Shown here: positions 7,498 to 58,178 of the stretch, piece after piece | Layout of the letters: each line of letters begins with the position of its first letter | Numbering within the stretch: position 1 is the stretch's first letter | Source: a virus | Virus record (IMG/VR): IMGVR_UViG_3300038393_001027 | Location: 1-64,000 of that record | DNA length: 64,000 nt | Strand: one strand, 5' to 3' | Translations under genes and position numbers: made by a program | Notes under the pieces: generated by a model | The model's database searches: none | What the model saw: only the letters and a program-made list of their open reading frames with translations | Told to the model about the DNA's origin: nothing

Positions 7498-7557
7498 GGG
7501 GGCGGGGAGGCCGCCCCCTCATTATTGAAGTACACCGGGCTACCTAGGCTGTGACAG
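7498..7557 (-). promoter_or_regulatory. Class I cassette element, copy 1 (heads dnaN-like gene)
   Basis: CTGTCACAG CCTAGGTAGCCC GGTGTAC TTCAA TAATGA GGGGGCGG..CCGCCCCC. Confidence 0.85.
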
Positions 7558-7564
7558 GCTGGGC

Positions 7565-7738
7565 TTAACGGTCCTTGACAAAGAAGGTTACCCGTCCAAG
7601 TACAAGGTCCGTTTCATACTGGTCGTAAAGCTCCCCCATGACTTTTACGAAGTCCTCTCTGGCCGGGAGAACTTCACGTTGCTCCGGGGCGTTCGCCGGA
7701 TCGGCACGGAGGCCTGCCTTGAGCACGAGGATGACCAT
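7565..7738 (-). CDS. Small hypothetical protein (57 aa, not in ORF track)
   Basis: Translated by hand as MVILVLKAGLRADPANAPEQ...FFVKDR*. Confidence 0.5.
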   Translation of the reverse strand: MVILVLKAGLRADPANAPEQREVLPAREDFVKVMGELYDQYETDLVLGRVTFFVKDR

Positions 7739-7741
7739 CGT

Positions 7742-8248
7742 CTACCCCCAGTTCCGGAGGTTGAAGTCCTCCAGCGCCGCCGCGTAGGCATGGGCCTCGG
7801 TTGGGTACTCGGAACCGACTTCGAAGTAGTGCCCTGTGAACAAGCTATCAGTTTGCTGGTTGTACTCCCATGTCACCCACTCGATCTGGTTGTTTCCCTT
7901 GTCGATGCGGGTCAGTACATAGAGCAGGTAGTTCTCGCCGCCGCGCTTGATGCCGAAGCAGGAGCCGCCCATGGATGCCACCGCACCGGGGCACCACGGG
8001 ATGGTGCCCTTCACTGGGTCGGGGAGCCAGATATTGCCGTCGATCTTCTTGACGGTCTTGGGGGCGCTGGGGTCGATGACGTGCTCCATGGGCGGATAGG
8101 CAAACTCGCCGTCACCCATGTGGGTGGCGTCGTTCTCGCCAGCCGTGGTCGGCACCCAAACGCACTCGATAACCTGACCGGAAGCGTCAACCTGCTCGAC
8201 CGTTGCCTTGACCAGAACCTCGTCGCCAACCTTGTACTGCTTCGTCAT
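7742..8248 (-). CDS. Hypothetical protein
   Basis: GGGAGGG RBS; N-terminal YKVGDEV motif. Confidence 0.7.
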   Translation of the reverse strand: MTKQYKVGDEVLVKATVEQVDASGQVIECVWVPTTAGENDATHMGDGEFAYPPMEHVIDPSAPKTVKKIDGNIWLPDPVKGTIPWCPGAVASMGGSCFGIKRGGENYLLYVLTRIDKGNNQIEWVTWEYNQQTDSLFTGHYFEVGSEYPTEAHAYAAALEDFNLRNWG

Positions 8249-8266
8249 GATGAAGCCCTCCCTTTC

Positions 8267-8656
8267 TTACTTCGGTTCGTTGTCGATCAGGTGGTCAAAC
8301 GGGCCGGGCGGCTCGTTGTAGGGGCACTCGGCATCGTCCGGGGCCGGGGGCAGGCTCGGCTCGGGGCCGGGCCACGGAGCACGGTCAACCTCGGGTGCCT
8401 CGAAGGGGTCCAGCGGGGCGCCCGGCTCTTCGCCGTCTTCAAAGGCTTCCTTGATCTCCTCAGGGGTAGGCGGGTCCTGCTCGTCGATCGAGTGCGGGAA
8501 CTCATACACGTTGGCATCAGCCTTGACGATGACCGGGGCGTTCTCACGTGCGTCCCAGTGACCCTCCATGCAGTGCACAATCACCGTGATCTCACGGCCG
8601 TTGATCTCCTGCACGACAGCCGGGACCAAAACGGTCTGCCCAACCTTGAACATCAA
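8267..8656 (-). CDS. Hypothetical protein with acidic Pro-rich tail
   Basis: FKVGQTV N-terminus; GGAGGAG RBS. Confidence 0.65.
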   Translation of the reverse strand: MMFKVGQTVLVPAVVQEINGREITVIVHCMEGHWDARENAPVIVKADANVYEFPHSIDEQDPPTPEEIKEAFEDGEEPGAPLDPFEAPEVDRAPWPGPEPSLPPAPDDAECPYNEPPGPFDHLIDNEPK

Positions 8657-8847
8657 AACTCCTCCTTCGTCTCTTCTGGGTCCTGCAGGGCCAACGCCAC
8701 GTTGGAACCGCAGGCCTGCACGCTCAGGACGGCCAGATGATGGTCAGCGGTCTCCCACGGCTCGGGGCTCAAGGCCTCGACCTCAGCCGGGGTCAGGGTC
8801 TCGAACTCGGGGTGCAGGATCTCAAGCTCTTCCCAGTTGATCGGCAT
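8653..8847 (-). CDS. Small acidic hypothetical protein
   Basis: First gene after element copy 2; GGGAG RBS. Confidence 0.6.
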   Translation of the reverse strand: MPINWEELEILHPEFETLTPAEVEALSPEPWETADHHLAVLSVQACGSNVALALQDPEETKEEF

Positions 8848-8872
8848 GGTTGGCACGCTCCCGATTGATGAT

Positions 8873-8931
8873 GGGGGCGGTGCCCCGCCCCCTCATTACT
8901 TACGTACACCGGGCTACTGGGCCTGTGACAG
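8873..8931 (-). promoter_or_regulatory. Class I cassette element, copy 2
   Basis: CTGTCACAG GCCCAGTAGCCC GGTGTAC GTAAG TAATGA GGGGGCGG..CCGCCCCC. Confidence 0.85.
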
Positions 8932-8934
8932 GGC

Positions 8935-10597: not shown

Positions 10598-10621
10598 GTG
10601 ATGAAGCCCTCCTTTGAGTCT

Positions 10622-10642
10622 ATTATGGACGATACTGGACAA
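10622..10642 (-). promoter_or_regulatory. Class II promoter (TTGTCCAR-N7 then -10)
   Basis: TTGTCCAG TATCGTC CATAAT. Confidence 0.6.
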
Positions 10643-11842: not shown

Positions 11843-11883
11843 GATGAATCCCCCTTGTTTGATTGGGGCGCTGGGGGCGCTCC

Positions 11884-12384: not shown

Positions 12385-12408
12385 GTGAATCGACCTCCGA
12401 TGATTGAT

Positions 12409-12467
12409 GGGGGAGGGAGGCCTCCCCCTCATTACTTACGTACACCCGCCTACTGGGGCTGTGACAG
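12409..12467 (-). promoter_or_regulatory. Class I cassette element, copy 3
   Basis: CTGTCACAG CCCCAGTAGGCG GGTGTAC GTAAG TAATGA GGGGGAGG..CCTCCCCC. Confidence 0.85.
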
Positions 12468-12758
12468 AGCCTCGATGAAGGCGGCGATGGCCCGGCGCTC
12501 GAAGTCCGTTACAGGCTGATCCGGAATGTCGGCATCAGACCGGGGTTCAGTCAGGGCGCCGTTCTCGTAGGCGATGAGGCGGTTCCCATCATGAAGCAGG
12601 TCGATATCGCCCTCGACGTTCAGGATCGTCAGTCCGGTCTCCTCATCCTTGGCGTCACCATGGGAAGGCTCGGCTCGGCACAGGCGCTGGTTCTCCTCCA
12701 AGTTGCTCAGGCGATTGGCGTGTGCCTCGGTCAGCAGGCGCTCGATGATCTCCTTCAA
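12450..12758 (-). CDS. Hypothetical protein ending inside element copy 3 (LSQPQ*)
   Basis: GGAGGGG RBS; the element supplies the stop codon. Confidence 0.65.
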   Translation of the reverse strand: MKEIIERLLTEAHANRLSNLEENQRLCRAEPSHGDAKDEETGLTILNVEGDIDLLHDGNRLIAYENGALTEPRSDADIPDQPVTDFERRAIAAFIEALSQPQ

Positions 12759-14223: not shown

Positions 14224-14250
14224 GATGGGTAACCCCCTGATGTTTATTGG

Positions 14251-14307
14251 AGGGGGCGGGGCGCCCCCTCATTATTGAAGTACACCCGGCTACTGGGGCT
14301 GTGACAG
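14251..14307 (-). promoter_or_regulatory. Class I cassette element, copy 4
   Basis: CTGTCACAG CCCCAGTAGCCG GGTGTAC TTCAA TAATGA GGGGGCG..CGCCCCCT. Confidence 0.85.
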
Positions 14308-16085: not shown

Positions 16086-16112
16086 GATGGTATCCGCTCC
16101 TTTGGTTTGATT

Positions 16113-16172
16113 GGGGGCGGGGAGGCCGCCCCCTCATTATTCTCGTACACCGGGCCTCTAGGACTGTGACAG
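16113..16172 (-). promoter_or_regulatory. Class I cassette element, copy 5
   Basis: CTGTCACAG TCCTAGAGGCCC GGTGTAC GAGAA TAATGA GGGGGCGG..CCGCCCCC. Confidence 0.85.
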
Positions 16173-16553: not shown

Positions 16554-16554
16554 G

Positions 16555-16746: not shown

Positions 16747-16771
16747 AGCGTCTCAGCCTCCAGTGTTTGTT

Positions 16772-16824
16772 AGGGGGCTTCACCCTCATTACTTACGTAC
16801 ACCGGGCATCATAAACTGTGACGG
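16772..16824 (-). promoter_or_regulatory. Class I cassette element, copy 6 (AT-rich spacer variant at the strand switch)
   Basis: CCGTCACAG TTTATGATGCCC GGTGTAC GTAAG TAATGAGGGTG. Confidence 0.8.
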
Positions 16825-16834: not shown

Positions 16835-17248
16835 ATGCGCGGTGACACGCATCTACTGGCCGGGGCCGCCTTCGGCGTCGTGGCAGGCCTCACTGACCCG
16901 GTAAGCTGGGGCGCCCTGCTCTTCGGCTCGCTTCTGCCCGACATCGACCACCACGCCAGCCCCATCGGCCGCTGTGTACCTTTTGTGCAGAAGCTTGCTG
17001 GGCACCGGGGCCTACTCCACAGCGTCACCGTCGGCATGGGGCTGGGTGTAGCTGTGCACCCATGGCTGGGCATCGGGTACCTGCTCCATGAACTGCTCGA
17101 TACCTTCAACCCCAGCGGTGGTAAGTTCCTCTGGCCCTTCGTCCCCGATCGGATCAAATGCCCGTGGGGTGTCATCCGGACGGGTAGCGGCGGCGAACTA
17201 CTCGTGCGGGCGCTGTTGGTAAGCATAATTGTAGCCCGGCTGTTCTAG
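16835..17248 (+). CDS. YdjM-like membrane-bound metal-dependent hydrolase
   Basis: TH..GSLLPDIDH..GHRGLLHS..GYLLHELLDTFNPSG motifs of the YdjM family; GGGGGTG RBS. Confidence 0.8.
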   Translation: MRGDTHLLAGAAFGVVAGLTDPVSWGALLFGSLLPDIDHHASPIGRCVPFVQKLAGHRGLLHSVTVGMGLGVAVHPWLGIGYLLHELLDTFNPSGGKFLWPFVPDRIKCPWGVIRTGSGGELLVRALLVSIIVARLF

Positions 17249-17262
17249 CCGGGCTGTTTTGT
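17233..17262 (+). terminator. Intrinsic terminator
   Basis: AGCCCGGC-TGTTCTA-GCCGGGCT followed by GTTTTGT. Confidence 0.7.
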
Positions 17263-17276
17263 TGGGTGTTTCGCTC

Positions 17277-17303
17277 ACCGGGTCCATCTGGCAGGCATAA
17301 TCT
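17277..17303 (+). promoter_or_regulatory. Putative sigma-K-like (mother-cell) promoter
   Basis: AC-N17-CATAATCT between the terminator and the RBS; low-information consensus. Confidence 0.35.
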
Positions 17304-17332
17304 GGCCCACAACCTTGAAAGGGGCTGTTGCC

Positions 17333-17533
17333 ATGGACCTGATGGCCTTCTCGAAGCTGGCAGGCGCCCTACTGGCGACGTCATTTCTGGCGTCTGCGCT
17401 GGACTCCATGGGCTATCCAGCCACTGCCCGGCTCTTGAACTTGGGCGGAACGCTCCTGCTGGGCTGGAACCTCCTACAGATCGGCCTGAAGTTCTATCAG
17501 GCCGCTATGAGCCTGCTGGGTGAGTTCGTCTGA
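17333..17533 (+). CDS. SpoIIIAC/AD-like small membrane protein
   Basis: KLAG....SFL...LDSMG...A.LL.L.G pattern and 66-aa length parallel SpoIIIAC (QIAG..VAFLHTILDQMGKKEYAQWVTLLG, from memory); TGATG-coupled to the next gene. Confidence 0.55.
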   Translation: MDLMAFSKLAGALLATSFLASALDSMGYPATARLLNLGGTLLLGWNLLQIGLKFYQAAMSLLGEFV

Positions 17534-19881
17534 TGAAGCTTTACACCATCCTGACGCCTAGGGGCGATGCCCCAGACCCCAGCGCCTTTGTAGCCCTATG
17601 GGAGTCACTCTATGCCGTGCACCACCCGTCGCCAGAGACCTATTTCACGCTGGAATGGCACGCCAAAGCCGGGGAAGTGACCCTCCGGGCCGCTGTGCCG
17701 GATGGCCTGTTCCCCATCTTTGAGCGTGCATGGGCCGCCGTACACCCGGCGGTGGAGTTTGTTGAAGCGTCAGACCCACTGGCCGATTGTGTTGGCGAGA
17801 TGGCCGCCGCCCGGCTCACCTTGTGGGATCACTTCATGTTTCCGCTCGCGCAGGAGTACCGCCCAGCCGCCGACCCGGTAACCGGGCTGATCAGCGCCTT
17901 GGGTGGTCTGGGCGAGCAGGAACAGGTTTGCGTGCAGGTCACCCTGCAACCCGTTCATTTGCGGCATACCAGCCGTTTGGAGCACACATGGCAGGCCTAC
18001 CAGCGCTCGGGCGCCCGGCCCAGCCGGACACCCGAAGCCCTTTGCGACTGGCCGACCGCCCTAGAACTGCCCATCGGCATGCTCTACACCGTAGCTGACT
18101 GGGCCTATCGCTATACGCAGGGGCGCGGTCAGCGGGCGTCACAGGTCCTGCCGGAAGTCGCAGGTAGCGTCCGGCGGAAGATCGATGGCCGCTACTTGCT
18201 CGATGCTACCGTCCGGATACTCGCTGTGGCCGCTGACGCCGGATCCGCCGACACCAACCTTGCCGCAGTCGTTTCGGCGTTCGCACCCCTCGCTCACCAA
18301 AACCGCTGGCACACCCACAGAGAGGATGCAACCACGCTTCTGCCGTTAATGCGCGCACGGTCCCGCCCCTTCCACAAAGAGAACTTCCTTGGCCCTGCTG
18401 AACTTGCCGCCATGCTTCATACCCCGGCGCCCCAAACCCCGCTGTTCAAGCGCCTCCCCAGTCGTAGGATGCCCGTTCCAGACGGCATTCAAACCTACCC
18501 AACCATAGAAGCGGCTCAGGCCGCTGGGGCGATCGTGATAGGAGTAAGCCGCTACCGGGGTACAACCCGCTACATCGGCTTTACCAACCTGCGAATGCTC
18601 ATGCAACACCTTTACTGCATCGGCGCCACCGGGTCCGGCAAGACCACCATGCTTCAGCTTATTGCCCTACAGGTTGCAGTACAGCATGGGGCCGGACTGA
18701 CCTTCTTCGATGTGAAGGGCGACGCCGTAAAGCACCTGATGACCTACCTGCCAGAAGCCGCCCGCAACCGTGTTATCTACATCGACCTGTCACAGGACCT
18801 CTGGTTCATGCCCTTCAACGTCCTCCGCTTCCCCGGTCTGGACCTGCTGGACCTCGTGACACTGATCGTCAACGTCTTTCTGGCGATCTTCGGCGAACAG
18901 TCCATTCAGGCGCACAGCCAGAAGATGTTGCGAGCCTCACTCATCGCCATCTTGGAACAAGACCCCGACGCCACGCTCTATGAAGCCTACCGCATGTTCA
19001 CAGACGCCGCCTACCGCCAGCGCATTATTGCAGGCATGGAGCGTCAGACCGAGTACCCCCATGACGTACTTCACTTCTGGCGGATCTACGATGACCCCAA
19101 GGGCATGGGCGAGAAACGGCCGGATTCAGCCGCCATTCAGAACAAGCTGGAGTACATCCTACAGGCAACGAAGCCCAAACACATGCTGACCCAACCGGGT
19201 TTGGCCTTCGATTGGCGTGAAGCCATGGACTCCTCCAAGATCGTCCTTGTGAACCTCGACATCGGCCGAAATGACCCCACCATTCAGAAGTTCTTCGGGA
19301 CCCTGTTCACCCGACTCATCCTGAAGGCCGCATTCAGCCGCTCCGATCAGCCAGAAGCAGACCGGGTACCACATCTGTTCATCCTCGATGAGTTTGAGCA
19401 GTTCACGGAGCAGAGCGGCGAGTTCGCAGACCTACTGGCCCTTGCCCGTGCCTACGGGCTGGGGCTGTGCCTCACCCATCAATCAGTGAAGCAACTCGAT
19501 GACCGCATGCTCAGCCTCATCGCCGACAACACCTTCACCCAGATCAGCCTGATGATCGGTGATGGCTCTTCTGGGCGCATTTCGAAGCTGTTTCCCGGCT
19601 TCCAGCCCGACGATCTAACCAGCCTGCTCTGTGGGTCAGCTACCGGGTTTGAAGGGGTTGCCCGGCTCAGGAAGCTGGACCCCCAGCCGTTCACCTTTAA
19701 CACACTGGCCGTAGAGGACCTGTTTGAGCCACAGGGTTCTGTTGAAAACCTGATTCAAGACCAACACCAACGCCTTTACCGCCCAAGAGCCGCCGTGCAG
19801 GCTGAACTGGCCGCCCGCCGGGGCGCCTCGGCCCAGATTGACACCAGCGGGGCTGTGAAACGGAAAAAGCCCCCAGCCTAA
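17533..19881 (+). CDS. VirD4/TraD/TrwB-like type IV coupling ATPase (FtsK/HerA superfamily)
   Basis: HLYCIGATGSGKT (Walker A), FFDVKGD, FILDEF (Walker B), ARAYGLGLCLTHQSVKQL. Confidence 0.85.
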   Translation: MKLYTILTPRGDAPDPSAFVALWESLYAVHHPSPETYFTLEWHAKAGEVTLRAAVPDGLFPIFERAWAAVHPAVEFVEASDPLADCVGEMAAARLTLWDHFMFPLAQEYRPAADPVTGLISALGGLGEQEQVCVQVTLQPVHLRHTSRLEHTWQAYQRSGARPSRTPEALCDWPTALELPIGMLYTVADWAYRYTQGRGQRASQVLPEVAGSVRRKIDGRYLLDATVRILAVAADAGSADTNLAAVVSAFAPLAHQNRWHTHREDATTLLPLMRARSRPFHKENFLGPAELAAMLHTPAPQTPLFKRLPSRRMPVPDGIQTYPTIEAAQAAGAIVIGVSRYRGTTRYIGFTNLRMLMQHLYCIGATGSGKTTMLQLIALQVAVQHGAGLTFFDVKGDAVKHLMTYLPEAARNRVIYIDLSQDLWFMPFNVLRFPGLDLLDLVTLIVNVFLAIFGEQSIQAHSQKMLRASLIAILEQDPDATLYEAYRMFTDAAYRQRIIAGMERQTEYPHDVLHFWRIYDDPKGMGEKRPDSAAIQNKLEYILQATKPKHMLTQPGLAFDWREAMDSSKIVLVNLDIGRNDPTIQKFFGTLFTRLILKAAFSRSDQPEADRVPHLFILDEFEQFTEQSGEFADLLALARAYGLGLCLTHQSVKQLDDRMLSLIADNTFTQISLMIGDGSSGRISKLFPGFQPDDLTSLLCGSATGFEGVARLRKLDPQPFTFNTLAVEDLFEPQGSVENLIQDQHQRLYRPRAAVQAELAARRGASAQIDTSGAVKRKKPPA

Positions 19882-19904
19882 GCTGGGGGCTCCCTATAAG
19901 GAGG

Positions 19905-20762
19905 ATGCCGAGTTTGCGCCGCCACAAACTAACACCCTTAGAAAGGGTTCTCGCTTCGCCGCGACTTACCTGCCGGGATAAAGAGGTACTTTTTACCATC
20001 GGGCGCCTCCGGCTGGTAACCCCCCGCCTGCTGGCCGAAGTATTCCTGCCCTGCTATCCGGAAGCTTCCGCGCTGGTTATCATCCGGCGGCGGTTAAAGG
20101 TCCTGCTGGACCTAGGCCTGATCGACCGCTGGCGCCCCCGGCTGGCCCCCGGCAAGGGTACGGCGGAGTACGTCATACTGCTCACGAGCCTCGGCAAAGA
20201 GTTTCTGCAGTTCTTCAGCGGCTACACGTGCCGGATCGGAAGCCCAAGCCAACCGCTTGGGATTGTTCAATCCACGATGCACACTTATGAGGTAAGCACA
20301 CGGCTCTATCTTCCCATCCTTCGGGCAACGCGCCAGCGTCAGCTTCAACTCCGTGAGTACGCCGTGGAGGACGGTTTGCATTGTCCCGATGTGCCAGCCT
20401 GTAACAAGCCACGGATCCGGCTGTTCCCTGATCTCACGCTCAAACTCGGTACGCCAGACGATGAAAGCGACTTCTACCTGTGTTTCGAATGGGATCGTGG
20501 GACCATGACAGTTAAGCAACTCCTGCAGAAACTTGACCGTTACGATCGATTCTGTCGAACGACCCGATGGGCACCTGTCTGTGCTTTCGTGACCACCAGT
20601 TGGCACCGAGTTCTGACCGTGGCAAAAGCCATTACGCATTGTAGTCCTCCTCTGCAAGTTCCATGGCACTTGACCGCTATCGAAGACTTCGAGCGCAACC
20701 CGCTAGGTCGCATCTGGGTCCGGCCGGGCGCCCTTGATACAGCAGTACCACTCCCCGTCTAA
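19905..20762 (+). CDS. Replication-relaxation (Replic_Relax) family nuclease
   Basis: LTCRDKEVL..RRRLKVLLDLGLI wHTH; H..; FPD..; FEWDRGTM..KLDRY signature; AAGGAGG RBS. Confidence 0.8.
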   Translation: MPSLRRHKLTPLERVLASPRLTCRDKEVLFTIGRLRLVTPRLLAEVFLPCYPEASALVIIRRRLKVLLDLGLIDRWRPRLAPGKGTAEYVILLTSLGKEFLQFFSGYTCRIGSPSQPLGIVQSTMHTYEVSTRLYLPILRATRQRQLQLREYAVEDGLHCPDVPACNKPRIRLFPDLTLKLGTPDDESDFYLCFEWDRGTMTVKQLLQKLDRYDRFCRTTRWAPVCAFVTTSWHRVLTVAKAITHCSPPLQVPWHLTAIEDFERNPLGRIWVRPGALDTAVPLPV

Positions 20763-23413: not shown

Positions 23414-23466
23414 GAGGTCCTCCTTGGGTGTGATGGGGGCCGGGCGCCCGGCCCCCCCGTTGGATG

Positions 23467-24709: not shown

Positions 24710-24731
24710 AGTATAACCCGTACTTGGACAA
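24710..24731 (-). promoter_or_regulatory. Class II promoter
   Basis: TTGTCCAA GTACGGGT TATACT. Confidence 0.6.
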
Positions 24732-29078: not shown

Positions 29079-29094
29079 GCTCTGGCCGTCCTTT

Positions 29095-29454: not shown

Positions 29455-29460
29455 ACCGCC

Positions 29461-37982: not shown

Positions 37983-38010
37983 GGAGCCGGGTCACCTCCT
38001 TGGGCCTTTG

Positions 38011-38039
38011 GTACACCAGCCAAATCAGGGCTGTGACAG
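38011..38039 (-). promoter_or_regulatory. Class I cassette element, copy 7 (partial, spacer +1, no hairpin)
   Basis: CTGTCACAG CCCTGATTTGGCT GGTGTAC. Confidence 0.55.
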
Positions 38040-39068: not shown

Positions 39069-39234
39069 TTGGTTCTACCACCTTTACGTCCAGTCGCTTG
39101 GTGATGATGTCCCCGTTGGCGAAGTTTGCATTCTGCAAGGCTTCCGCTGGGGTGTCATACTCTTCAACCGTGTAGCCATCATGGTGATTCAAAAATTTGA
39201 TCAGCAGGTAGGGTTTCGGCTTGGTGTTAGCCAT
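39061..39234 (-). CDS. Small hypothetical protein
   Basis: GGAGGAGG RBS before MANTKP. Confidence 0.55.
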   Translation of the reverse strand: MANTKPKPYLLIKFLNHHDGYTVEEYDTPAEALQNANFANGDIITKRLDVKVVEPNG

Positions 39235-41411: not shown

Positions 41412-42041
41412 CTACCGCCCGCCCTTGTAGTAGTCAGCCGGGTTCAGGCCGATCTTTCCGATGTACTCCAGCAAGATCCGGAAGTTCTGCTCCAGCCGGG
41501 CGTTGTGCTTACGCACGTAGTCCTTCGCCTCCACCTGCGACAGAACACCGTGCTCCTTGATCTGGGCCAGCGTCAGCTTGATCGTGTGGGTGGGGAAGAT
41601 GCAGAAGCGCCGCGTGCCATCCGGCTCTACCGTGTCGTCCGGGCTAAGATCAACCTCGAACTGATCATCCAGCGACTGGTGCATGCGGCCCACGCCTTCG
41701 GAGCAGTAGACGAGGATGCCGCTCGGCCCCTCGATGACGGCGAGGTTGTCGTTCGCCACGCCGTGCGGGACCAGCGGCTGTTCGCCCTGCTCGACGCGGG
41801 CCTTGTTGCTGGGCATATCCAACACTGCCTGCCGGATGTTGTAGACGTTCAGCGGGGTGACGGCGGGCGCCGGGGGGTTCGGGCTGATCTCATCCATGAT
41901 GGGGTTCATAGGGTCATGGAGCGGCGGCCGGACCTCGCCGGGCAGGGGCTCATTCAGGACCTTCTCGATCTGCGGGGCCGTACGGTCAAGCTCAGCCTGA
42001 AACAAGCGGATGCCCTCAGCGATCTCGTCAGGGGTAGCCAT
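41412..42041 (-). CDS. Hypothetical protein
   Basis: First gene after element copy 8; AAGGAGG RBS. Confidence 0.7.
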   Translation of the reverse strand: MATPDEIAEGIRLFQAELDRTAPQIEKVLNEPLPGEVRPPLHDPMNPIMDEISPNPPAPAVTPLNVYNIRQAVLDMPSNKARVEQGEQPLVPHGVANDNLAVIEGPSGILVYCSEGVGRMHQSLDDQFEVDLSPDDTVEPDGTRRFCIFPTHTIKLTLAQIKEHGVLSQVEAKDYVRKHNARLEQNFRILLEYIGKIGLNPADYYKGGR

Positions 42042-42072
42042 GTGGGTGTCCTCCTTGGGGATGTGTTGGGTT

Positions 42073-42132
42073 GGGGGCGCCCAAGGCACCCCCTCATTAC
42101 TTCCGTACACCGGGCTACTGGGGCTGTGACAG
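42073..42132 (-). promoter_or_regulatory. Class I cassette element, copy 8
   Basis: CTGTCACAG CCCCAGTAGCCC GGTGTAC GGAAG TAATGA GGGGGTGCC..GGCGCCCCC. Confidence 0.85.
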
Positions 42133-44732: not shown

Positions 44733-44753
44733 GATGATGCCCTCCTTTGTGCT

Positions 44754-44812
44754 GGGGGTGGAGGACCACCCCCGCATTACTTACGTACACCGGGCTACCG
44801 GGGCTGTGACAG
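44754..44812 (-). promoter_or_regulatory. Class I cassette element, copy 9
   Basis: CTGTCACAG CCCCGGTAGCCC GGTGTAC GTAAG TAATGC GGGGGTGG..CCACCCCC. Confidence 0.85.
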
Positions 44813-47572: not shown

Positions 47573-48589
47573 TTACATCCCGACTCCCGTCCAGTAGTAG
47601 ATCGGATTTGCGTCAGCCGGGACTTCGTGGGGCCGCTCTGACCAGCTTGCATAGACCGGAACAAGCCGCTTGAACCACTCGATGTTGATGCCTGCCGCCT
47701 CATCCACGTTGTAGGTGTCGATGTACTGGAAGATCTGGCTACCCTCGTAACCACCGTAGAAGGTACCATAGATGCTCTGCCTGCGCTGGAAGAGTTGATC
47801 CATTCGCACAGCTTCGCCCTTCATGAGCCGCAGGCCAAACTCCTTTGCCTCCGGATCAATCTCCTTGTGCTGGTCAACATACGTCTGGATCCACGCTGAA
47901 TTGACCAGCGTCGCATGATGCCACGGGTTACCCATGCGGGCGAAGAGCAACTCAGCCCGCTGGTAGTTCAGTACATTCAGCCCCGTCCGTGACTGGACAA
48001 TCGTACGCCACACCTTAGGGCCAAAGTCGTAAATCCGAGGGTTCATGGCGTAGCCTGCAATCGCCTTCTCGCCTTTCTGCCCGAAGATGGTCACCCGCTT
48101 CGGCTCCTGATGCTTGAGCAGGGCCTCGCCAAACGGCCGCAGGAGTTCCCGCCGGGCCGCCGCTTCCCCCTCTACGCCGATGGCGCTCCAGCTAAACCCG
48201 AAGGAAATCTCCCGACGCCACGCCTCGGGCGTCATCCACTGGGCAAAAGATCGCTCGTCGATCAGCCGCATGAACGCCCGGCCCAGATCAGTCGGCACGG
48301 GCGCCGGGCAGTTGCGCTTGTCACGGTCGTAGTGACACTCGTGCTCACCTACGTACTCGATCAGCCCCAGCCGCTTCAACTGCTTGATCTGCTTCAGGTC
48401 AAGGCTGAGTTCGTCTTCAAAGTAGTGCTTGCAGACACCACTGCCCCAGCCGTCCAACAGCCGATAGAACATGCCATACAAGGCATCCTTGGTGGTCGGC
48501 GTCAGCTTGATCATGTAGTCAGCTTCCGTCACCGGGTTCTGATACAGTAAGGGCGCCGGGGCCTTATGCGACCAGATCTGCATGGACAT
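47573..48589 (-). CDS. Hypothetical protein with N-terminal wHTH-like segment
   Basis: KQIKQLKRLGLIEY..PTDLGR. Confidence 0.7.
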   Translation of the reverse strand: MSMQIWSHKAPAPLLYQNPVTEADYMIKLTPTTKDALYGMFYRLLDGWGSGVCKHYFEDELSLDLKQIKQLKRLGLIEYVGEHECHYDRDKRNCPAPVPTDLGRAFMRLIDERSFAQWMTPEAWRREISFGFSWSAIGVEGEAAARRELLRPFGEALLKHQEPKRVTIFGQKGEKAIAGYAMNPRIYDFGPKVWRTIVQSRTGLNVLNYQRAELLFARMGNPWHHATLVNSAWIQTYVDQHKEIDPEAKEFGLRLMKGEAVRMDQLFQRRQSIYGTFYGGYEGSQIFQYIDTYNVDEAAGINIEWFKRLVPVYASWSERPHEVPADANPIYYWTGVGM

Positions 48590-48632
48590 GAGGAATCGCG
48601 CTCCTTTTGATTGGGGCGGGCGCCCCGTGGTG

Positions 48633-48929
48633 TTAGGCCTCGATCAACGGGACCTTAATGATACTGACGGTTGTCACCCAATAAAACGACACGTCAACAC
48701 CCTTGAAGCCATGGCGCCGAAGCACTGTTTGCACAGGATTCCGGCCACCCGCCAGCCGCTTCTGCAAGATACGCTCACTGTAGTCGCAGTTGTACAGGTC
48801 CTTCTGTAGCGCATCCGCCTTTGCCTCAGCCTGTGGTCCGGCGAAGACACCCACGATGTCTAGCCGCTCGTGGGGATCATCGCCTGCCATGACCACGTAA
48901 GCCAACGTGAACTTTGCCATGATCTTCAC
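48633..48929 (-). CDS. Hypothetical protein
   Basis: Leader hairpin and AAGGAG RBS. Confidence 0.6.
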   Translation of the reverse strand: MKIMAKFTLAYVVMAGDDPHERLDIVGVFAGPQAEAKADALQKDLYNCDYSERILQKRLAGGRNPVQTVLRRHGFKGVDVSFYWVTTVSIIKVPLIEA

Positions 48930-48971
48930 TCCTTGGGGGCCGGGTGGTCCGGCCCCCCCTCGCCGCTTGGT

Positions 48972-49658
48972 TTAGAAGCTGAAGTCGTAGTACTCACTCC
49001 GGGCGCCCAGCCCGATGGAGTAGTTGCGATCCTTGATCGTACCCTTGATCCAGTAGATCCGCCCGTTACGCTCGACCCGCCGGGCGTCGTAGGTCTGGCC
49101 CTCCGGGTCCCGCTCGAAGCGGTAATCCTGCGATTCGCTCATGCCGTTCGTGTCAATGCGCTCGGCTCGGTCCTGCTGGACCTCGACGCCCTTGACCCGG
49201 CCGTCCTTGGTGAACAGGACCTTGCTGACCGTGGCCGCATGGCGGTCGCTGAACATGATGACCGTCGCCGGGGCGCCCACCACCGGGCCGATGACGTCGT
49301 AGATCATGGAGAGGATGCCGCCCTCACCGTGCGGGTAGTCCGTCCGGTTGTCATAGGGGACCACGTTCCCTGCCGGGTCTACGATCTGGTAGTGCCGCTC
49401 GATGCGCTCCTCCGGGGCCTTGCCGGGCGGGCGCACCGTGAAGGTATGCGTGTCGGTCAGGTAGAGCTTGTAGCCAGCCGCATGGAGCTTTGCCATGGTC
49501 TCGGCCAGCACCTCCGGCACCATCTCGGTGGAGTCGGTCGGATGCGGGCCGTTCGGTAGCTCAGTCCACGTGGAGCGGTCACGACGGTTCGGTAGGTTGG
49601 CGATGACGGTCTGCAGGCGGGAGCTAGTCTGCTGGGTGCTCATACGTTCGGTGGTCAT
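48972..49658 (-). CDS. Phage hypothetical protein
   Basis: First gene after element copy 10; SDRHAAT..NGMSESQDY..YYDFSF. Confidence 0.7.
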   Translation of the reverse strand: MTTERMSTQQTSSRLQTVIANLPNRRDRSTWTELPNGPHPTDSTEMVPEVLAETMAKLHAAGYKLYLTDTHTFTVRPPGKAPEERIERHYQIVDPAGNVVPYDNRTDYPHGEGGILSMIYDVIGPVVGAPATVIMFSDRHAATVSKVLFTKDGRVKGVEVQQDRAERIDTNGMSESQDYRFERDPEGQTYDARRVERNGRIYWIKGTIKDRNYSIGLGARSEYYDFSF

Positions 49659-49682
49659 GTGGTTATCCCCCTTGTTGTTGAT

Positions 49683-49743
49683 GGGGGGCGGGGTTGCGCC
49701 CCCCTCATTACTCTCGTACACCGGGCCTCTGGCGCTGTGACAG
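49683..49743 (-). promoter_or_regulatory. Class I cassette element, copy 10
   Basis: CTGTCACAG CGCCAGAGGCCC GGTGTAC GAGAG TAATGA GGGGGGCG..CGCCCCCC. Confidence 0.85.
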
Positions 49744-49747
49744 TCCT

Positions 49748-49770
49748 AGTGTAGCCGGGTCCTTGGACAA
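49748..49770 (-). promoter_or_regulatory. Class II promoter-like site in tandem with copy 10
   Basis: TTGTCCAA GGACCCGGC TACACT. Confidence 0.45.
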
Positions 49771-49807
49771 ATATGCACAATCAGAAGCCCACAAAGCCGG
49801 GGCAGGA

Positions 49808-50206
49808 CTAGAATGGATGCTCCGGCAGGGCGCCCTCAAGACCCAGCGTCTCGATGACCCGCTCAACAGAACCTACCCGGTCACCCTCTTCCAGACCCTC
49901 GAAGATGGCGTCACGCACTGCCTCAGCCTTGGACTTGGCCGCTAGGCAGGCGTCGTCGCTCTTTTTGCCAACACCGACGAAGAAGCACAGGACTTCGGTT
50001 TCCGGTCCGAAGTTGTCGCTGTACCCACCGCTGACCGTAGAGACAGCCAACACTTGGTACCCCACGATGATCTTGCCGTCCGGAGCATTCTTCAGCCCCA
50101 CAGACCGCGCCTGTGCATCCGTCAACCCGTGCCACAGGGGCAGGACCTCGATCTTGAAGCACTGATCCGTATTAACCGGGGTCCCGTCTAGCGCTCTAAT
50201 CCACAT
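49808..50206 (-). CDS. Hypothetical protein
   Basis: GAGGAGG RBS before MWIRALDG. Confidence 0.6.
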   Translation of the reverse strand: MWIRALDGTPVNTDQCFKIEVLPLWHGLTDAQARSVGLKNAPDGKIIVGYQVLAVSTVSGGYSDNFGPETEVLCFFVGVGKKSDDACLAAKSKAEAVRDAIFEGLEEGDRVGSVERVIETLGLEGALPEHPF

Positions 50207-50552
50207 CTTCCACAGCCTCCTCGTGGGTGACGCCAGCCGCCCGCTGGATCTGTTCAATGAAGTCCTGCCGGAACCGCCCGTCCTCGTCATAGTTGGCCGG
50301 GTCGGCGCCGGGTACGTGCCAGCCGAACATGGACCCTGCACTCATCGCCTCAGCCTGCCCCTTGGTGATGCCCATCTCCGCGTTCAACTCGTCGGCCGGG
50401 AGCTTGCGCATGTGCTCATCCTTGAGCGGGTAGAAGCCCATCTCACCCCGGCGGATGCCGATCGTCTCCCCGGTCGTCCGGTTGGTACCGTAACAGGCCG
50501 CCGGAAGTCCTCCGAACGTCGGATGCACCTTGTACAGATCCTGCTCAGACAT
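50196..50552 (-). CDS. Mobile-element hypothetical protein
   Basis: IRRGEMGFYP..ADELN..GIT..AEAM..GSMFGW.VPGADP motif. Confidence 0.7.
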   Translation of the reverse strand: MSEQDLYKVHPTFGGLPAACYGTNRTTGETIGIRRGEMGFYPLKDEHMRKLPADELNAEMGITKGQAEAMSAGSMFGWHVPGADPANYDEDGRFRQDFIEQIQRAAGVTHEEAVEDVD

Positions 50553-50593
50553 GTGTACTCGCTCTCCTTTCAGATGTGGGCCGGGGCCGGGGG

Positions 50594-51217
50594 TTACCCG
50601 GCCTGCTTCTTGTTCTTGGTACCTTCAGCCTTGCCTGCCGACTTGCCACGGGCGCCGCTGGCGCCCTTCTTGGCGTCATGTGACACCTTAGGCGTCTTCG
50701 ACGTCTTGGGCGCCGCCTTGGTCTTGCTGGGGGCCTTGGGCGGGGTCTCAGGGGCGGCGCGTTCAGCAAGCTCCGCAAGCTGGCGCCGATCCGCCCGTGC
50801 CGCCCGGCCCGCCGCTCGTTTGGCCTGCGTATCGGCCTGCACCTTATCCCACCCGGTCAACTCCCGTTTGGCCGGGGTCTGCGCCTCAAACACGATGGGG
50901 GTCTCAGCCTTGGCCTTAGCTGGCTTGGCCGGGCGCTCAGGCTTGGTGGGCGCCTTGTACTCGACACCCTTGAGCTTCCCAAGGATGCCCTCGAACAGAT
51001 CAGCCTCCAGAAGCTGGGGCTTCTCAAAGCCCGGCTTCCCGTCAGCACCGATGGAGCGCTGGGCAATCTTCACGAAGTGCTTCGTGATGCCGTGCGCAAC
51101 CATCGTCGATTCAACGACTCGAACCTCCGTCTGGGTCTCCGTGTTCTGCCGGATGAAGCTCGCCAGCGTACGGCCCTCGATGAATTCGTAGTCCGTCTTC
51201 TGCTTATCGTCTGCCAT
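50594..51217 (-). CDS. Putative DNA-binding protein with histone-like Lys/Ala tail
   Basis: First gene after element copy 11; C-terminal half is very K/A-rich. Confidence 0.65.
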   Translation of the reverse strand: MADDKQKTDYEFIEGRTLASFIRQNTETQTEVRVVESTMVAHGITKHFVKIAQRSIGADGKPGFEKPQLLEADLFEGILGKLKGVEYKAPTKPERPAKPAKAKAETPIVFEAQTPAKRELTGWDKVQADTQAKRAAGRAARADRRQLAELAERAAPETPPKAPSKTKAAPKTSKTPKVSHDAKKGASGARGKSAGKAEGTKNKKQAG

Positions 51218-51244
51218 GTGTGATGCAACCCCTTCGGTTTGATT

Positions 51245-51305
51245 GGGGGCGATAGTCGCCGCCCCCTCATTATTTCCGTACACCGGGCCTCTAGGCCTGT
51301 GACAC
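51245..51305 (-). promoter_or_regulatory. Class I cassette element, copy 11
   Basis: GTGTCACAG GCCTAGAGGCCC GGTGTAC GGAAA TAATGA GGGGGCG..CGCCCCC. Confidence 0.85.
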
Positions 51306-51506
51306 AGCCTTTATCAGCAGGCTTGCGGCATAGCCGTGCCAGCGCTCGTCATCAAGTTGGGTCTCCGTGAAGACCACCATCGTACGGCCACGCCGGACAA
51401 TCCGGCGCACCTTGCCCGGCCGGGATGTTCCGGCCGGGCGCCGCAAGGCTACCATGTCACCGATGACCACCCGGCCATCCCAGATCGTGGCGCTTTTGCA
51501 GTCCAT
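51291..51506 (-). CDS. Small protein ending inside element copy 11 (VSQA*)
   Basis: Stop codon lies in the element. Confidence 0.55.
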   Translation of the reverse strand: MDCKSATIWDGRVVIGDMVALRRPAGTSRPGKVRRIVRRGRTMVVFTETQLDDERWHGYAASLLIKAVSQA

Positions 51507-51507
51507 G

Positions 51508-51975
51508 CTAGGCGCCCTGCTTCCAGTAACGGTTCTCGATGGGGCCGTGGTTCATGACCGTATCACAGTCGTACATGGCCCAGCGTCCGGTTGACACCGA
51601 CTCAAAGCTGAATGGAGCCACAATCTCAATCTTCTCGATGACCTTACCGCTGACATCCATGTCTACGATCAGATCACCTACCGATAAGCTGTTCATGTTG
51701 TAGCAATCATACCCTGCCTGCCGAGCCTCCTCATCCAGATGCTCCAACACACCAACCGGATCCTCTTCAACCCGGTTGAACTCACGGAAGATGTGCTGAT
51801 CACGCTGAAGCGGAGTTAGCTCACCTTCCCAGACCATGCGGTAGAGGGGCGCTGTCTTCTCGGTGAAGCATCCCTTCCGTGCGTCAAAGTAGGCCTTCAG
51901 CGTCTCCGAGTCAATTGGCTGACCTGCCCCATCGAAAACCTTATTCATGTCGATCTGGTAGATGCGAACCATCAT
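51508..51975 (-). CDS. YodL-like domain protein
   Basis: RIYQI..YRMVWEGEL..IFREFN..SLSVGDLIV. Confidence 0.65.
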   Translation of the reverse strand: MMVRIYQIDMNKVFDGAGQPIDSETLKAYFDARKGCFTEKTAPLYRMVWEGELTPLQRDQHIFREFNRVEEDPVGVLEHLDEEARQAGYDCYNMNSLSVGDLIVDMDVSGKVIEKIEIVAPFSFESVSTGRWAMYDCDTVMNHGPIENRYWKQGA

Positions 51976-52032
51976 GCTGATGACCACCTTTCGTTTGATG
52001 GGGGCGGGGTGGCCGCCCCCGTTGTGCCTTAG

Positions 52033-52710: not shown

Positions 52711-52734
52711 GGTGGGGTCCCCCTTGGTTTTGTT

Positions 52735-52792
52735 GGGGGCGCAGGGCGCCCCCTCATTTCTCTCGTACACCGGGCTACTGAAGCTGTGACAC
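52735..52792 (-). promoter_or_regulatory. Class I cassette element, copy 12
   Basis: GTGTCACAG CTTCAGTAGCCC GGTGTAC GAGAG AAATGA GGGGGCGC..GCGCCCCC. Confidence 0.85.
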
Positions 52793-53126: not shown

Positions 53127-53147
53127 ATTATGGACGATCTTGGACAA
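53127..53147 (-). promoter_or_regulatory. Class II promoter
   Basis: TTGTCCAA GATCGTC CATAAT; nearly identical to 10622-10642. Confidence 0.6.
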
Positions 53148-53773: not shown

Positions 53774-53775
53774 TC

Positions 53776-54033: not shown

Positions 54034-54057
54034 GATCACTCCACCCTTCGTTTGATT

Positions 54058-54113
54058 GGGGGCCGGGCGCCCCCTCATTATTCTCGTACACCTGCCCACA
54101 AAGGCTGTGACAG
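54058..54113 (-). promoter_or_regulatory. Class I cassette element, copy 13
   Basis: CTGTCACAG CCTTTGTGGGCA GGTGTAC GAGAA TAATGA GGGGGC..GCCCCC. Confidence 0.85.
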
Positions 54114-54114
54114 G

Positions 54115-54500
54115 TTATTATTTTAGAAAATTCTGGCACACTTCCCCATATATCTATATATAGATATAGATATAGATAGATATAGATAGATATTTAAATA
54201 AATCATCATTCATATCATTATCATCATCTAGATCAATCTCAAGCCTTTTGGTTTCCGGCCGGGGCCGCTGGGGCAACTACCCTTTTTGTGGGTCGCAACT
54301 CGTTATCCTTTGAAAGGCTATCAACTCGGTGACTCTGAAAGTAACACACTTCACCGCCGCTGAGCCGCGAAAAAATAAAAAGAAAAACACCCGGCGATTT
54401 TTATTTTTACTTTTGGGGGAGGGGGGGCCTCTTTTGAAAATGTAATGCGTGAAAGGCTACCAGTTGATAGCCTTTCACGCATTTGACGTTGCCGTCGGGT
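54115..54500. other. AT-rich non-coding region, putative replication origin
   Basis: ORF-free; 20-bp palindrome TATATCTATATATAGATATA (54149-54168), ATAGAT repeats, inverted A/T tracts and a long hairpin at 54444-54483. Confidence 0.5.
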
Positions 54501-54501
54501 T

Positions 54502-56813: not shown

Positions 56814-56865
56814 GTGAAACCCTCCCTATTGCTGTTGGGGCCGGGTGGGTCCGGCCCCTACCTCT

Positions 56866-56886
56866 ATTCTAAACGAAACTGGACAA
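56866..56886 (-). promoter_or_regulatory. Class II promoter followed by a 5' hairpin
   Basis: TTGTCCAG TTTCGTT TAGAAT, then GGGGCCGG..CCGGCCCC and an RBS. Confidence 0.6.
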
Positions 56887-56888
56887 TC

Positions 56889-57344
56889 TTACTCAATCGG
56901 CGCGTAGAAGGCAACAGGCTCCCCTGTCACGTTGTCATGGCGGCTGATGACTGTGAAGCCCTTCGTGTCCAGATCCTTTTGGCGGGACTGTCGGACGACT
57001 TCCATGTACTCAGCGCCCCGGTCCCGGTAGCGGTCCCGCTTGTAGTAGCGGTTCATGAACTCTTCCAGCGTCTTGACGTCGGTCACCCTGTACTTGCGGG
57101 CGCTCTCATAAGCGCCCCAGTACTCCTCCACCTTGCCGTTTCGCCGGAAGGTCATGAAGGTATAGTCACCCCGCGTGACCTTCAGGACATGCGCGGCGGC
57201 GTTCGAGGCATCCGGGTTGTCGATGAGGAACTGCCGAGCGGCGGCGACGGCCTCCTCTTCGGTCTCGAAGAAGTGATCCTTGTTTAGGGGCTTGGTCGCA
57301 TCAAAGCTGTCAATCACAGTCTGCAGGCCGTAGGGCTTCGTCAT
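56889..57344 (-). CDS. Hypothetical protein
   Basis: AAGGAGG RBS. Confidence 0.7.
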   Translation of the reverse strand: MTKPYGLQTVIDSFDATKPLNKDHFFETEEEAVAAARQFLIDNPDASNAAAHVLKVTRGDYTFMTFRRNGKVEEYWGAYESARKYRVTDVKTLEEFMNRYYKRDRYRDRGAEYMEVVRQSRQKDLDTKGFTVISRHDNVTGEPVAFYAPIE

Positions 57345-57380
57345 GGTGATAGCCTCCTTGGGTGTGGTTGGGGATCGGGT

Positions 57381-57923
57381 CTAGTCAGTGAAGATCGATC
57401 GGAACTTGACGACCCAGCAGAGGCGCTGGTGCCGATCTGCAAAGTAGTGGCCGTCCAGATAGGTTTGGCCGATGCCGTCAAAACCGCTGGAACCCAACTG
57501 CGGAAACCGCTTCATGGCCTCCGGCCACACCGTCTTGGCCCACTCCTCAATCTGAGCCTTCGTGACCACCTGCGGGTCTACCATCACGGCATAGAGCGTC
57601 TCACTGTCGGCATAGGGACGGGGCTGGCCTGCGGCGATGCAGACCACGTAGTTGCCCGATAGCAGTTGTGGCTTACGGTCAAACTGGCCGTAGCCTTCGA
57701 GTCGGGGCGTATAGCTGGAATCAGGCGCCGGGGCCGAGGCGCCATTAGCTACGTAGCCGTTCATAGCAAAGTTCCGGGCCGTGTCCATCGCCGCCTTGAA
57801 GTCCAGTCGCATGAAACCCTGCATGGGAAGCCCGTTCTCACAGACGTCGTGCTTGTCACGCTGATCAGGATTCCGTCGTACGCTAAACCGATGCGCCGTG
57901 TAAGGATAAGTCACTTCAGTCAC
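57381..57923 (-). CDS. Hypothetical protein
   Basis: AAGGAGG upstream; tightly packed. Confidence 0.65.
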   Translation of the reverse strand: MTEVTYPYTAHRFSVRRNPDQRDKHDVCENGLPMQGFMRLDFKAAMDTARNFAMNGYVANGASAPAPDSSYTPRLEGYGQFDRKPQLLSGNYVVCIAAGQPRPYADSETLYAVMVDPQVVTKAQIEEWAKTVWPEAMKRFPQLGSSGFDGIGQTYLDGHYFADRHQRLCWVVKFRSIFTD

Positions 57924-58125
57924 CCTCCTTGCTGTTGGTCGGCGGCTTCAGCGGCTGGAAGTTGGTGTCGATGCCCAACCGGGTGCACTCCTTCTCAATG
58001 GCCGCATGGGCAAGGTTCAACTTCTCCTGCAGGTCGGCGGCCTCCACCGGATCAGTGGTTCGGCGCGGGGCATCTTTCAGATTCCGAGCCTCGATGTTCA
58101 GGAAGCAAAGTCGGTTTGTGTCCAT
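57916..58125 (-). CDS. Small hypothetical protein
   Basis: First gene after element copy 14. Confidence 0.6.
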   Translation of the reverse strand: MDTNRLCFLNIEARNLKDAPRRTTDPVEAADLQEKLNLAHAAIEKECTRLGIDTNFQPLKPPTNSKEGD

Positions 58126-58134
58126 AGTGGTATC

Positions 58135-58178
58135 CCTCCTCATTATTGTCGTACACCGGGCTACATGGGCTGTGACAA
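58135..58178 (-). promoter_or_regulatory. Class I cassette element, copy 14 (no hairpin; RBS follows directly)
   Basis: TTGTCACAG CCCATGTAGCCC GGTGTAC GACAA TAATGAGGAGG. Confidence 0.8.

Follow-up and report, generated by a model that had tools for sequence, protein, structure and literature searches.

What does a short DNA unit do when it recurs in one orientation ahead of genes that have nothing in common? The question is raised by a stretch of 64,000 nucleotides (nt), here called the window, which corresponds to bases 1-64000 of the 111,151-bp IMG/VR virus record IMGVR_UViG_3300038393_001027 (60% GC), an uncultured phage present in soil and rhizosphere metagenomes and listed for no RNA run. 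The unit is ~85 bp long and comprises a two-box promoter-like site, an RNA hairpin and a ribosome site. It was regarded in the initial annotation as a ready-made expression unit read by a non-housekeeping, probably phage-encoded sigma factor, a view that gains support by comparison, namely from an architecture found in five phages and from the occurrence of a sigma-like domain. Judging from sequence, it is estimated here, with a probability of roughly 60%, that every copy combines a phage-specific promoter, with the geometry of the sigma-70 family, and a standard 5′ leader, and that its likeliest reader is the phage's own sigma-like domain.

The repeated unit and its layout in five phages

A scan of the window for TGTCACAG-N12-GGTGTAC, allowing up to three mismatches, gave 14 matches versus 1.57 expected, and none of 100 shuffles reached 14. 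Thirteen matches have zero or one mismatch, all of them intergenic and on the minus strand, and the repeated element is real at the places where the initial annotation had put it (that annotation gave the low ends of ~60-bp units, while copies are named here by their high-end coordinate, e.g. 7556, 8930 or 58177; Table 1). The remaining match (41543-41569), with three mismatches and inside a gene, was dismissed as a chance occurrence. The spacing of the boxes, TGTCAC-N16-TGTACG, is invariant across the 13 full copies, as had been claimed, and the partial copy at 38 kb is real as well, with N17 between the hexamers (a 13-nt gap in the terms of the motif) and neither TAATGA nor hairpin. Scanning the whole genome added a 15th, degenerate copy outside the window (103711-103737), directly after the portal gene. 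The statement that no copy lies in the replication or structural blocks thus needs qualification, given this last copy and the position of the 38-kb copy directly before the replication block.

After the boxes come N5, TAATGAGGGGG and, in 12 of the 13 full copies, a GC stem of 6-9 bp beginning at the G-run, which is followed on its 3′ side by an A/C-rich stretch (AATCAAAC type), GGAGG and ATG. The earlier description of a GC hairpin with varied sequence and kept pairing therefore applies to these 12 copies but not to copy 58177, which runs straight into the ribosome site. Pairing is preserved despite changes on both sides of the stem, position 6 being C-G, A-U, U-A, U-G or G-C, and at the stem foot of copy 44811 UGA...UCA is replaced by a compensated UGC...GCA (pairs were counted from single folds, since loops were misaligned in a MAFFT alignment, which was set aside). 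The first T lies 78-91 nt from the start codon (53 nt in the hairpin-less copy 58177), and the distance to the Shine-Dalgarno (SD) sequence and start codon spans 53-96 nt when the 13 full copies and the two variants, all of them intergenic and on the coding strand, are considered together. The genes headed by different copies are mutually unrelated, as first noted, and almost all are without family. No match to Rfam families was found in the window.

An exact-motif scan of IMG/VR returned 20 loci, of which the sole true relative is L021 (6.6 kb), the others being single chance matches. This locus is syntenic with 57.2-64.0 kb at ~70% nucleotide identity, and its element, orthologous to copy 58177, has identical boxes, a different spacer and a small hairpin. 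The spacer had been described as more conserved than a promoter would need, but that conservation is not required: this copy and copy 54112 have different spacers and intact boxes. No match was obtained in an extended-motif scan of metagenome contigs or in protein searches for relatives with the portal and with the SNF2 helicase. More distant relatives were reached with the sigma-like segment described below, which led to giant proteins of the same architecture and through them to the phage genomes G004, G005, G006 and G007 (complete or near-complete, 94-107 kb, 43-57% GC). These four have in common with the present phage (G000) a sigma+SNF2 protein at 32-35% identity; in addition, G004, G005 and G007 share with it the virion module, terminase, polymerase, primase-helicase, SNF2 helicase and a 2096-amino-acid (aa)-type protein at 25-52% identity, and have no accessory gene in common with it.

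The TGTCACAG motif is absent from G004-G007. Their units, located via enriched upstream words and then anchored on TGTA, follow one layout in 4-13 copies per relative. Exactly 16 nt before TGTA(C/T)N stands a hexamer that is specific to the lineage, namely TGTCAC in G000, GTAGAG in G005, CTAGAA in G004, GTCCAC in G007 and YAAKAG in G006. In all five genomes TGTA(C/T)N is followed by six A/T-rich bases and a conserved purine (7 nt after the hexamer), a hairpin opened by (U)GAGGGG or AGGGG and closed by CCCC(U), a CAAAACAAA-like linker, AGGAG and ATG. The bipartite geometry of the sigma-70 family, i.e. two hexamers 16 nt apart on the coding strand and upstream of genes, is thus found in all five phages. 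Across G000, G004, G005 and G007, 37 of 39 anchored copies are predicted to form a hairpin (5 bp or more) that starts no further than 6 nt from the purine, no two identical; three of these are, by eye, spurious long-range folds at copies lacking a real stem, leaving ~34 genuine ones, and in the same four genomes (G006 was left out) the median z against shuffles is -2.6 to -3.9. Among the first genes headed by the element in G004, G005 and G007, 5 of 25 have a homologue in another family member versus about half of all genes.

Read as a promoter, the unit would consist of a −35 element TGTCAC, a 16-nt spacer, a −10-like TGTACG and six A/T-rich bases before the start, which is predicted to be the A of ATGAGG. 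The geometry is assigned to the sigma-70 family because the two hexamers lie 16 nt apart and are followed, after 6 nt, by a conserved purine. Since RNA would start at the A of ATGAGG on this register, the hairpin would be 5′-terminal: the transcript would begin at the foot of a G5...C5 hairpin and continue into an unstructured CA-rich linker, a strong SD sequence and ATG. In several copies the predicted start A is the first paired base of the stem (AUGA...UCAU). The hairpin would accordingly be a 5′-terminal stabiliser and not a terminator, and the whole unit is placed before lineage-specific early or accessory genes, mostly without known function, and before a few replication genes. Three other interpretations of these parts were rejected. 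An intrinsic terminator does not fit, because A/C-rich sequence without a U-tract follows the stems while true terminators of this genome carry one (canonical U-tract terminators are present elsewhere in it); TAATGA as −10 with TGTCACA as −35 would leave a gap of 25 nt; and a leaderless upstream open reading frame (ORF) from the ATG of TAATGAGG is contradicted by ATAG or GTAG at that place in G007 and by varying frames relative to the main ORF.

A sigma-like domain in a giant head-module protein

The phage-encoded sigma factor postulated in the initial annotation was sought by family-model searches of the genome, in which one sigma-like locus was found, residues ~290-590 of a 2096-aa protein. 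The gene lies on the minus strand in the head module, outside the window (genome 83857-90147; L010:1157-7447), and the protein carries an SNF2 ATPase at its C-terminus. In NCBIfam, the segment matches TIGR02937 over model positions 4-164, the whole model (expectation value, E, 5e-6), and RpoD_Cterm with an alignment across region 3 (E 1.7e-5), and all 10 families listed for it are sigma factors. A single-sequence AlphaFold model of the segment has a predicted local distance difference test score (pLDDT) of 69; the top 50 Foldseek hits of this model are almost all sigma-factor chains (~270-370 columns, probability about 1.0), and VIA gave Z values of 9-10, with region 4 at 1.8 Å over 61 residues and 28% identity to region 4 of the Thermus aquaticus sigma. 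Alignment with the relatives displays blocks resembling region 2.2 (DLVQTANIGF type), regions 2.4/3.0 (IKLPR) and region 4.2. The helix of region 4.2 predicted to read the −35 varies by lineage; the greatest likeness is between those of G004 and G005 (KWVD type), two phages that also have similar −35 hexamers, (C/G)TAGA(A/G). Within the gene set common to G000, G004, G005 and G007, the sigma+SNF2 protein is the only one related to transcription. Neither a match to the segment among GenBank phages (tblastn) nor a polymerase-like protein among the large proteins of the genome was found; a Pfam RNA_pol search of the genome was also without match, but its control was silent and the result carries no weight. 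Host core RNA polymerase equipped with the sigma-like domain of the 2096-aa protein would most likely be the reader.

Several points weigh against this interpretation. Promoter activity and the start site are predictions from sequence comparison, and sigma and promoter are linked by a correlation across five genomes whose hosts differ too, so that a host factor could co-vary. The segment scores under the curated cut-offs of every family (far below them in NCBIfam), Pfam detects region 4 at E 1.5e-3 and does not match region 2, and G005 possesses a second, free-standing sigma gene for a protein of 465 aa (28720-30117, L058:8720-10117, minus strand). In another register, the A/T-rich bases before GAGG could act as the −10, which would place the start inside the stem. 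Finally, the polarity of every hairpin, G first and C last, suggests a sequence-specific role beyond RNA stability.

The sigma gene is located between the portal and MuF-like genes on one side and the protease-scaffold and capsid genes on the other, adjoining DarB-like SNF2 and MuF-like proteins. It is possible, though doubtful, that the capsid contains the 2096-aa sigma+SNF2 protein, which would then be injected along with the DNA and would redirect host core polymerase at once to these promoters. Delivery in the virion would fit, because the sigma gene belongs to the late head module while the presumed promoters head early-type genes, and the element promoters would then be immediate-early. 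It would mean the injection of a sigma factor and not of a polymerase, and promoter and sigma would be evolving together in a family of ~100-kb phages.

Two further observations concern these proteins. Near its N-terminus, the 2096-aa protein shares 60% identity (residues 57-89) with residues 28-60 of its 633-aa neighbour (95033-96934) and 39% identity (residues 57-118) with residues 14-74 of the 1015-aa SNF2 protein; such an N-terminal stretch shared by giant proteins may be a packaging tag. The 465-aa protein of G005, a full match to the sigma-70/ECF superfamily (75.9 bits, above cut-off), is similar to sigmas of the sporulation type and lacks a homologue in G000, G004 and G007.

Genomic setting and competing explanations

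Nearly all genes of the genome are encoded by the minus strand. Along the direction of transcription, the window is preceded by the terminase (108.8-110.5 kb), the portal (103.7-105.8 kb), a minor head protein that is MuF-like and has one ParB-like end (97.3-98.9 kb), three giant proteins that include the DarB-like SNF2 protein and the 2096-aa protein (83.9-90.1 kb), protease-scaffold and capsid genes (79.6-82.6 kb) and tail genes (64-79 kb). The window itself contains ~60 kb of small genes without known function surrounding a replication block; the replication genes are those of primase-MCM, family A DNA polymerase, ribonucleotide reductase, SNF2 helicase and beta clamp. Among capsid proteins, the closest match is that of SPO1-like Herelleviridae (34% identity), no close relative of the whole phage was found among GenBank phages, and no tRNA genes were found in the phage. 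The record ends in 104-bp direct terminal repeats; the terminal repeat (window 1-117, genome 111045-111151) is made of ~3 tandem copies of a ~38-bp unit of the GGGATACTGGGGCGCCCTACCCATGCGCCTA type. The sole plus-strand island (window 16835-20762) encodes a nicking-type replication initiator (PHROG 9381) as well as a VirD4/HerA-like ATPase (782 aa) that G005 and G007 have kept with 36-38% identity. Two AT-rich non-coding stretches of ~0.4-0.5 kb (44-48% GC) occur at window 54113-54501 and genome 98873-99350, the first ending in copy 54112. For the 727-aa protein headed by copy 42131 (39227-41410), no Pfam family, no PHROG family and no usable Atlas match was found. Copy 44811 heads the SNF2 helicase after a 100-aa gene, and in G005 and G007 an element stands just upstream of the SNF2 helicase homologue.

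Table 1. Copies of the repeated unit, TTGTCC-type sites and box-less leaders in the window. Copies are ordered by position.
Feature	Position	Strand	Description
Full element	7473-7556	-	−35 TGTCAC, −10 TGTACT, hairpin, linker, SD; heads beta-clamp gene 6264-7472
Full element	8848-8930	-	−35 8925-8930, −10 TGTACG 8903-8908, predicted +1 8896; heads 64-aa gene 8653-8847
Full element	12385-12466	-	Upstream ORF 12450-12758 terminates within (LSQPQ-stop); heads 166-aa gene
Full element	14224-14306	-	Upstream ORF terminates within (LSQPQ-stop); heads 153-aa DUF6011 gene
Full element	16086-16171	-	Hairpin sequence same as copy 7556; upstream ORF terminates within (LSQS-stop)
Element	16747-16823	-	−35 CGTCAC; weak, imperfect hairpin; heads 63-aa gene
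Variant copy	37983-38038	-	One additional base between boxes; no TAATGA, no hairpin; SD directly; before replication block
Full element	42042-42131	-	Upstream ORF terminates within (LSQPQ-stop); heads 209-aa then 727-aa gene, function not known
Full element	44733-44811	-	TAATGC and compensating GCA after stem; heads 100-aa gene, then SNF2 helicase 42316-44433
Full element	49659-49742	-	TTGTCC-type promoter-like site immediately upstream (49748-49770)
Full element	51218-51304	-	Upstream ORF terminates within (VSQA-stop)
Full element	52711-52791	-	AAATGA variant; upstream ORF terminates within (VSQLQ-stop)
Full element	54034-54112	-	Divergent spacer; at end of 0.47-kb AT-rich non-coding stretch
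Hairpin-less copy	58126-58177	-	Boxes and TAATGAGG, then SD directly
TTGTCC-type sites	10622-10642, 24710-24731, 49748-49770, 53127-53147, 56866-56886, 58194-58214, 60199-60219	-	Exact
TTGTCC-type looser copies	~12790, 37714, 45500, 58750, 7590		
Box-less leaders	11843-11883, 23414-23466, 48590-48632, 48921-48971, 51976-52032, 56814-56888, others		GC hairpin, CA-rich linker, SD

A second promoter-like class, TTGTCC-N9-11-YANAMT, is represented in the window by seven exact copies versus 0.17 expected, all intergenic and on the minus strand, with good −10 sequences such as TAGAAT, CATAAT and TATACT. The placing of TTGTCC 9-11 nt before the −10 recalls activator-dependent middle promoters. Copies 7556, 49742 and 58177 each have a site of this class a short way upstream, and L021 retains the tandem at 58 kb. 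Leaders without boxes, made of a GC hairpin, a CA-rich linker and an SD sequence, separate many genes, their stems usually being of other sequence, and one of them (56814-56888) follows a TTGTCC-type site. Leader and promoter are thus separable modules, because leaders occur both without boxes and after the second promoter-like site. In the relatives, a 9-mer, CTTCSGAAG, is found ~107 times in G004 and ~127 times in G005, and CTTCWGAAG ~50 times in G007; these words occur on either strand, frequently a short way before promoter units and also within some of the hairpins.

Could the repeats mainly be homologous recombination sites that shuffle gene cassettes, with promoter activity secondary, as in the promoter plus stem-loop units (PeSLs) of T4-type phages? 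This is quite unlikely, even if several observations point to exchange. The element of L021 runs straight into the homologue of gene 57381-57914, whereas in G000 a 69-aa gene stands between TAATGAGG and that gene, and one breakpoint therefore lies inside the element (copy 58177). A strain with at least 99% identity elsewhere is represented in run X4 by contigs at 40.0-47.8 kb and 52.0-59.9 kb, has no near-identical contig over window 47757-51983 (~4.2 kb) and continues in one contig into unlike sequence from 51983, a point 8 nt ahead of the start codon, in the SD-to-start spacer of a leader that has a hairpin but no boxes; the accessory block 47757-51983 has probably been replaced in it. Read joints of the same run (42004>44770, 52018>58138 and 58177>42089) stem from low-depth divergent contigs of which only the conserved element aligns; they are accounted for by the likeness of the element copies to one another and were not counted as deletions or circles. 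Six unrelated upstream ORFs stop within the element in one frame (stops at 12450, 14290, 16158, 42115, 51291 and 52775) with tails (L/V)SQ(P/L)Q-stop or (L/V)SQ(S/A)-stop, TAG at motif positions 15-17 and TAA TGA at 33-38 all being in that frame, but selection for the earliest stop could explain this too. Spacer, N5 and hairpin types form a mosaic among copies, elements mostly head lineage-specific genes, and G004 has tandem duplicates of a gene together with its leader. On the other side, the L021 case is the only clean indel, intergenic breakpoints are expected anyway because insertions are tolerated there, and the boxes are conserved far past the needs of recombination. Since the architecture persists in genomes without DNA similarity, it is function and not mobility that maintains the element. 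The earlier proposal of a recombination point thus keeps weak support from one indel, one strain break beside a hairpin leader and ORFs ending in the element, and exchange at the repeats as a side effect, as with PeSLs, is plausible. The accompanying idea of a genome cut by the elements into insulated cassettes lacks support: all are on one strand without terminators accompanying them, which makes read-through likely.

Three further explanations retain the boxes or the hairpin but change their reader or their role. Boxes read by a host sigma of the extracytoplasmic function (ECF) type, ECF41-like or SigW-like, would let the phage tap a host stress regulon and leave its own sigma-like domain to another task; TGTCAC(A)-N15/16-TGTA/GTAC does fit the general ECF pattern and includes the exact −35 of ECF41 promoters. 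Such a reader is nonetheless unlikely, given that relatives keep the −10, start region and leader with unrelated −35 hexamers, that the phage encodes a sigma-like domain conserved together with the element, that ECF sigmas are normally kept inactive, and that the ECF41 regulon is described as one neighbouring gene (PMC3426412). Alternatively, the boxes might be an operator for a phage regulator and the hairpin an attenuator or RNase III site on read-through transcripts started elsewhere, for instance at TTGTCC-type promoters. The abundance of box-less hairpin modules between genes and the good −10 of the second class just upstream of three copies are compatible with this, but it is very unlikely when hexamers 16 nt apart with 6 nt to a purine, a promoter geometry, are kept in five phages, when the boxes are not palindromic and when the hairpins are without U-tract although the genome has canonical terminators. 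That the hairpin acts as DNA, within an N4-style promoter whose reader would be a phage-encoded RNA polymerase, is extremely unlikely, despite the joint presence of a giant protein in the virion module and of GC hairpins. In N4 the hairpins precede the start and their loops measure 3 nt, while the stems of the element follow the boxes and have loops of 3-8 nt; moreover, as mentioned above, no polymerase was found among the large proteins. A phage-specific promoter followed by a 5′-terminal hairpin leader accordingly remains the preferred reading.

Comparison with known systems

5′-Terminal hairpins protect mRNAs from 5′-end-dependent decay, and the leaders of E. coli ompA and B. subtilis aprE carry 5′-terminal stem-loop stabilisers. 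A 5′ CUUCGG hairpin is likewise a stabiliser of the T4 gene 32 transcript (cited in PMC8948821). The leader of the present element would resemble these in having a stable hairpin at or near the 5′ end, an unstructured stretch and a strong SD sequence; it differs in that one design is reused ~13 times per genome and kept across a phage family. Promoter, 5′ hairpin, linker and SD sequence would together amount to a compact, portable expression unit.

ECF41 promoters read TGTCACA-n16-CGTC or TGTT (PMC3426412). Their −35 heptamer is identical to that of the element and lies 15-16 nt from an nGTn-type −10, where the element has TGTA/GTAC. The likeness seen in the initial annotation hence holds for the −35 box and the spacing, but does not extend to the protein or to the family: membership fails because the only sigma-like sequence aligns across region 3 (RpoD_Cterm) and is followed by an SNF2 ATPase, and because relatives change the −35 yet keep the −10 and leader. 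Neither an ECF41-type sigma with C-terminal extension nor a COE gene was found in the genome. Parallels also exist among phage sigma factors. Promoters of phiEco32 gp36 have a single element, tAATGTAtA, with starts 6-8 bp downstream, and those of phage 7-11 gp47 are bipartite, GTAAtg-16-aCTA, with a 16-bp spacer (PMC8948821). The core of the relatives, TATGTATG, resembles the gp36 element, the ATGTAT of the latter being like TGTAT(G) in the relatives, and starts at phage-sigma promoters lie 6-9 bp downstream, in agreement with the start predicted for the present unit. However, gp36 is without region 4 and its promoters without −35, whereas the present unit keeps a conserved −35 hexamer and the sigma-like domain includes, in region 4, a helix-turn-helix. 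The sigmas of phiEco32 and 7-11 redirect host core polymerase, as is proposed here, but gp36 and gp47 are products of free-standing middle or late genes and serve middle or late genes, while the present domain belongs to a head-module protein and the presumed promoters precede early-type genes. If the proposed pairing is right, the −35 that changes with the lineage would offer a natural series of matched sigma and promoter pairs.

The PeSLs of phages RB49, phi1, PST and nt-1 combine promoter, stem-loop, SD sequence and start codon (PMC2839356, PMC4122927). Like them, the element is a repeated cassette (~60-100 bp in PeSLs) with a polyG-then-polyC stem-loop (here G5/C5 in 12 of the 13 full copies), and it too precedes ORFan genes in variable parts of the genome. 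For PeSLs, participation in indels between relatives has been proposed, and mini-circles have been shown. The two designs diverge in their promoters and apparently in the order of their parts. PeSL promoters are sigma-70-like and host-read, whereas the boxes TGTCAC/TGTACG are unlike TTGACA/TATAAT, and in the present phage a sigma-70-like −10 belongs to the separate TTGTCC-N9-11-YANAMT class. The PeSL stem-loop is described as a terminator or attenuator of upstream transcription and seems to precede the promoter, while the hairpin of the element lies downstream of the boxes, without U-tract, in a predicted 5′ untranslated region. Repeated phage promoters were already known; here, one design of promoter and leader spans phages otherwise without common DNA and marks where the family keeps its fast-changing genes.

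The possible delivery of the sigma-like domain has its own precedents. N4 virion RNA polymerase is injected as a complete polymerase that reads DNA hairpins (PMC4496689, PMC5512222), and for polyvalent phage proteins packaging, injection and a jump-start of transcription have been predicted, in a survey whose text does not contain the word 'sigma' (PMC5512222). The 2096-aa protein is like polyvalent proteins in being a giant multidomain protein encoded among head genes, beside MuF-like and DarB-like SNF2 proteins. In contrast to N4, where a whole polymerase enters the cell, only a sigma-like domain would be injected here. If this proved true, it would represent a third route to transcription start independent of the housekeeping sigma, besides injected single-subunit and injected multisubunit polymerases.

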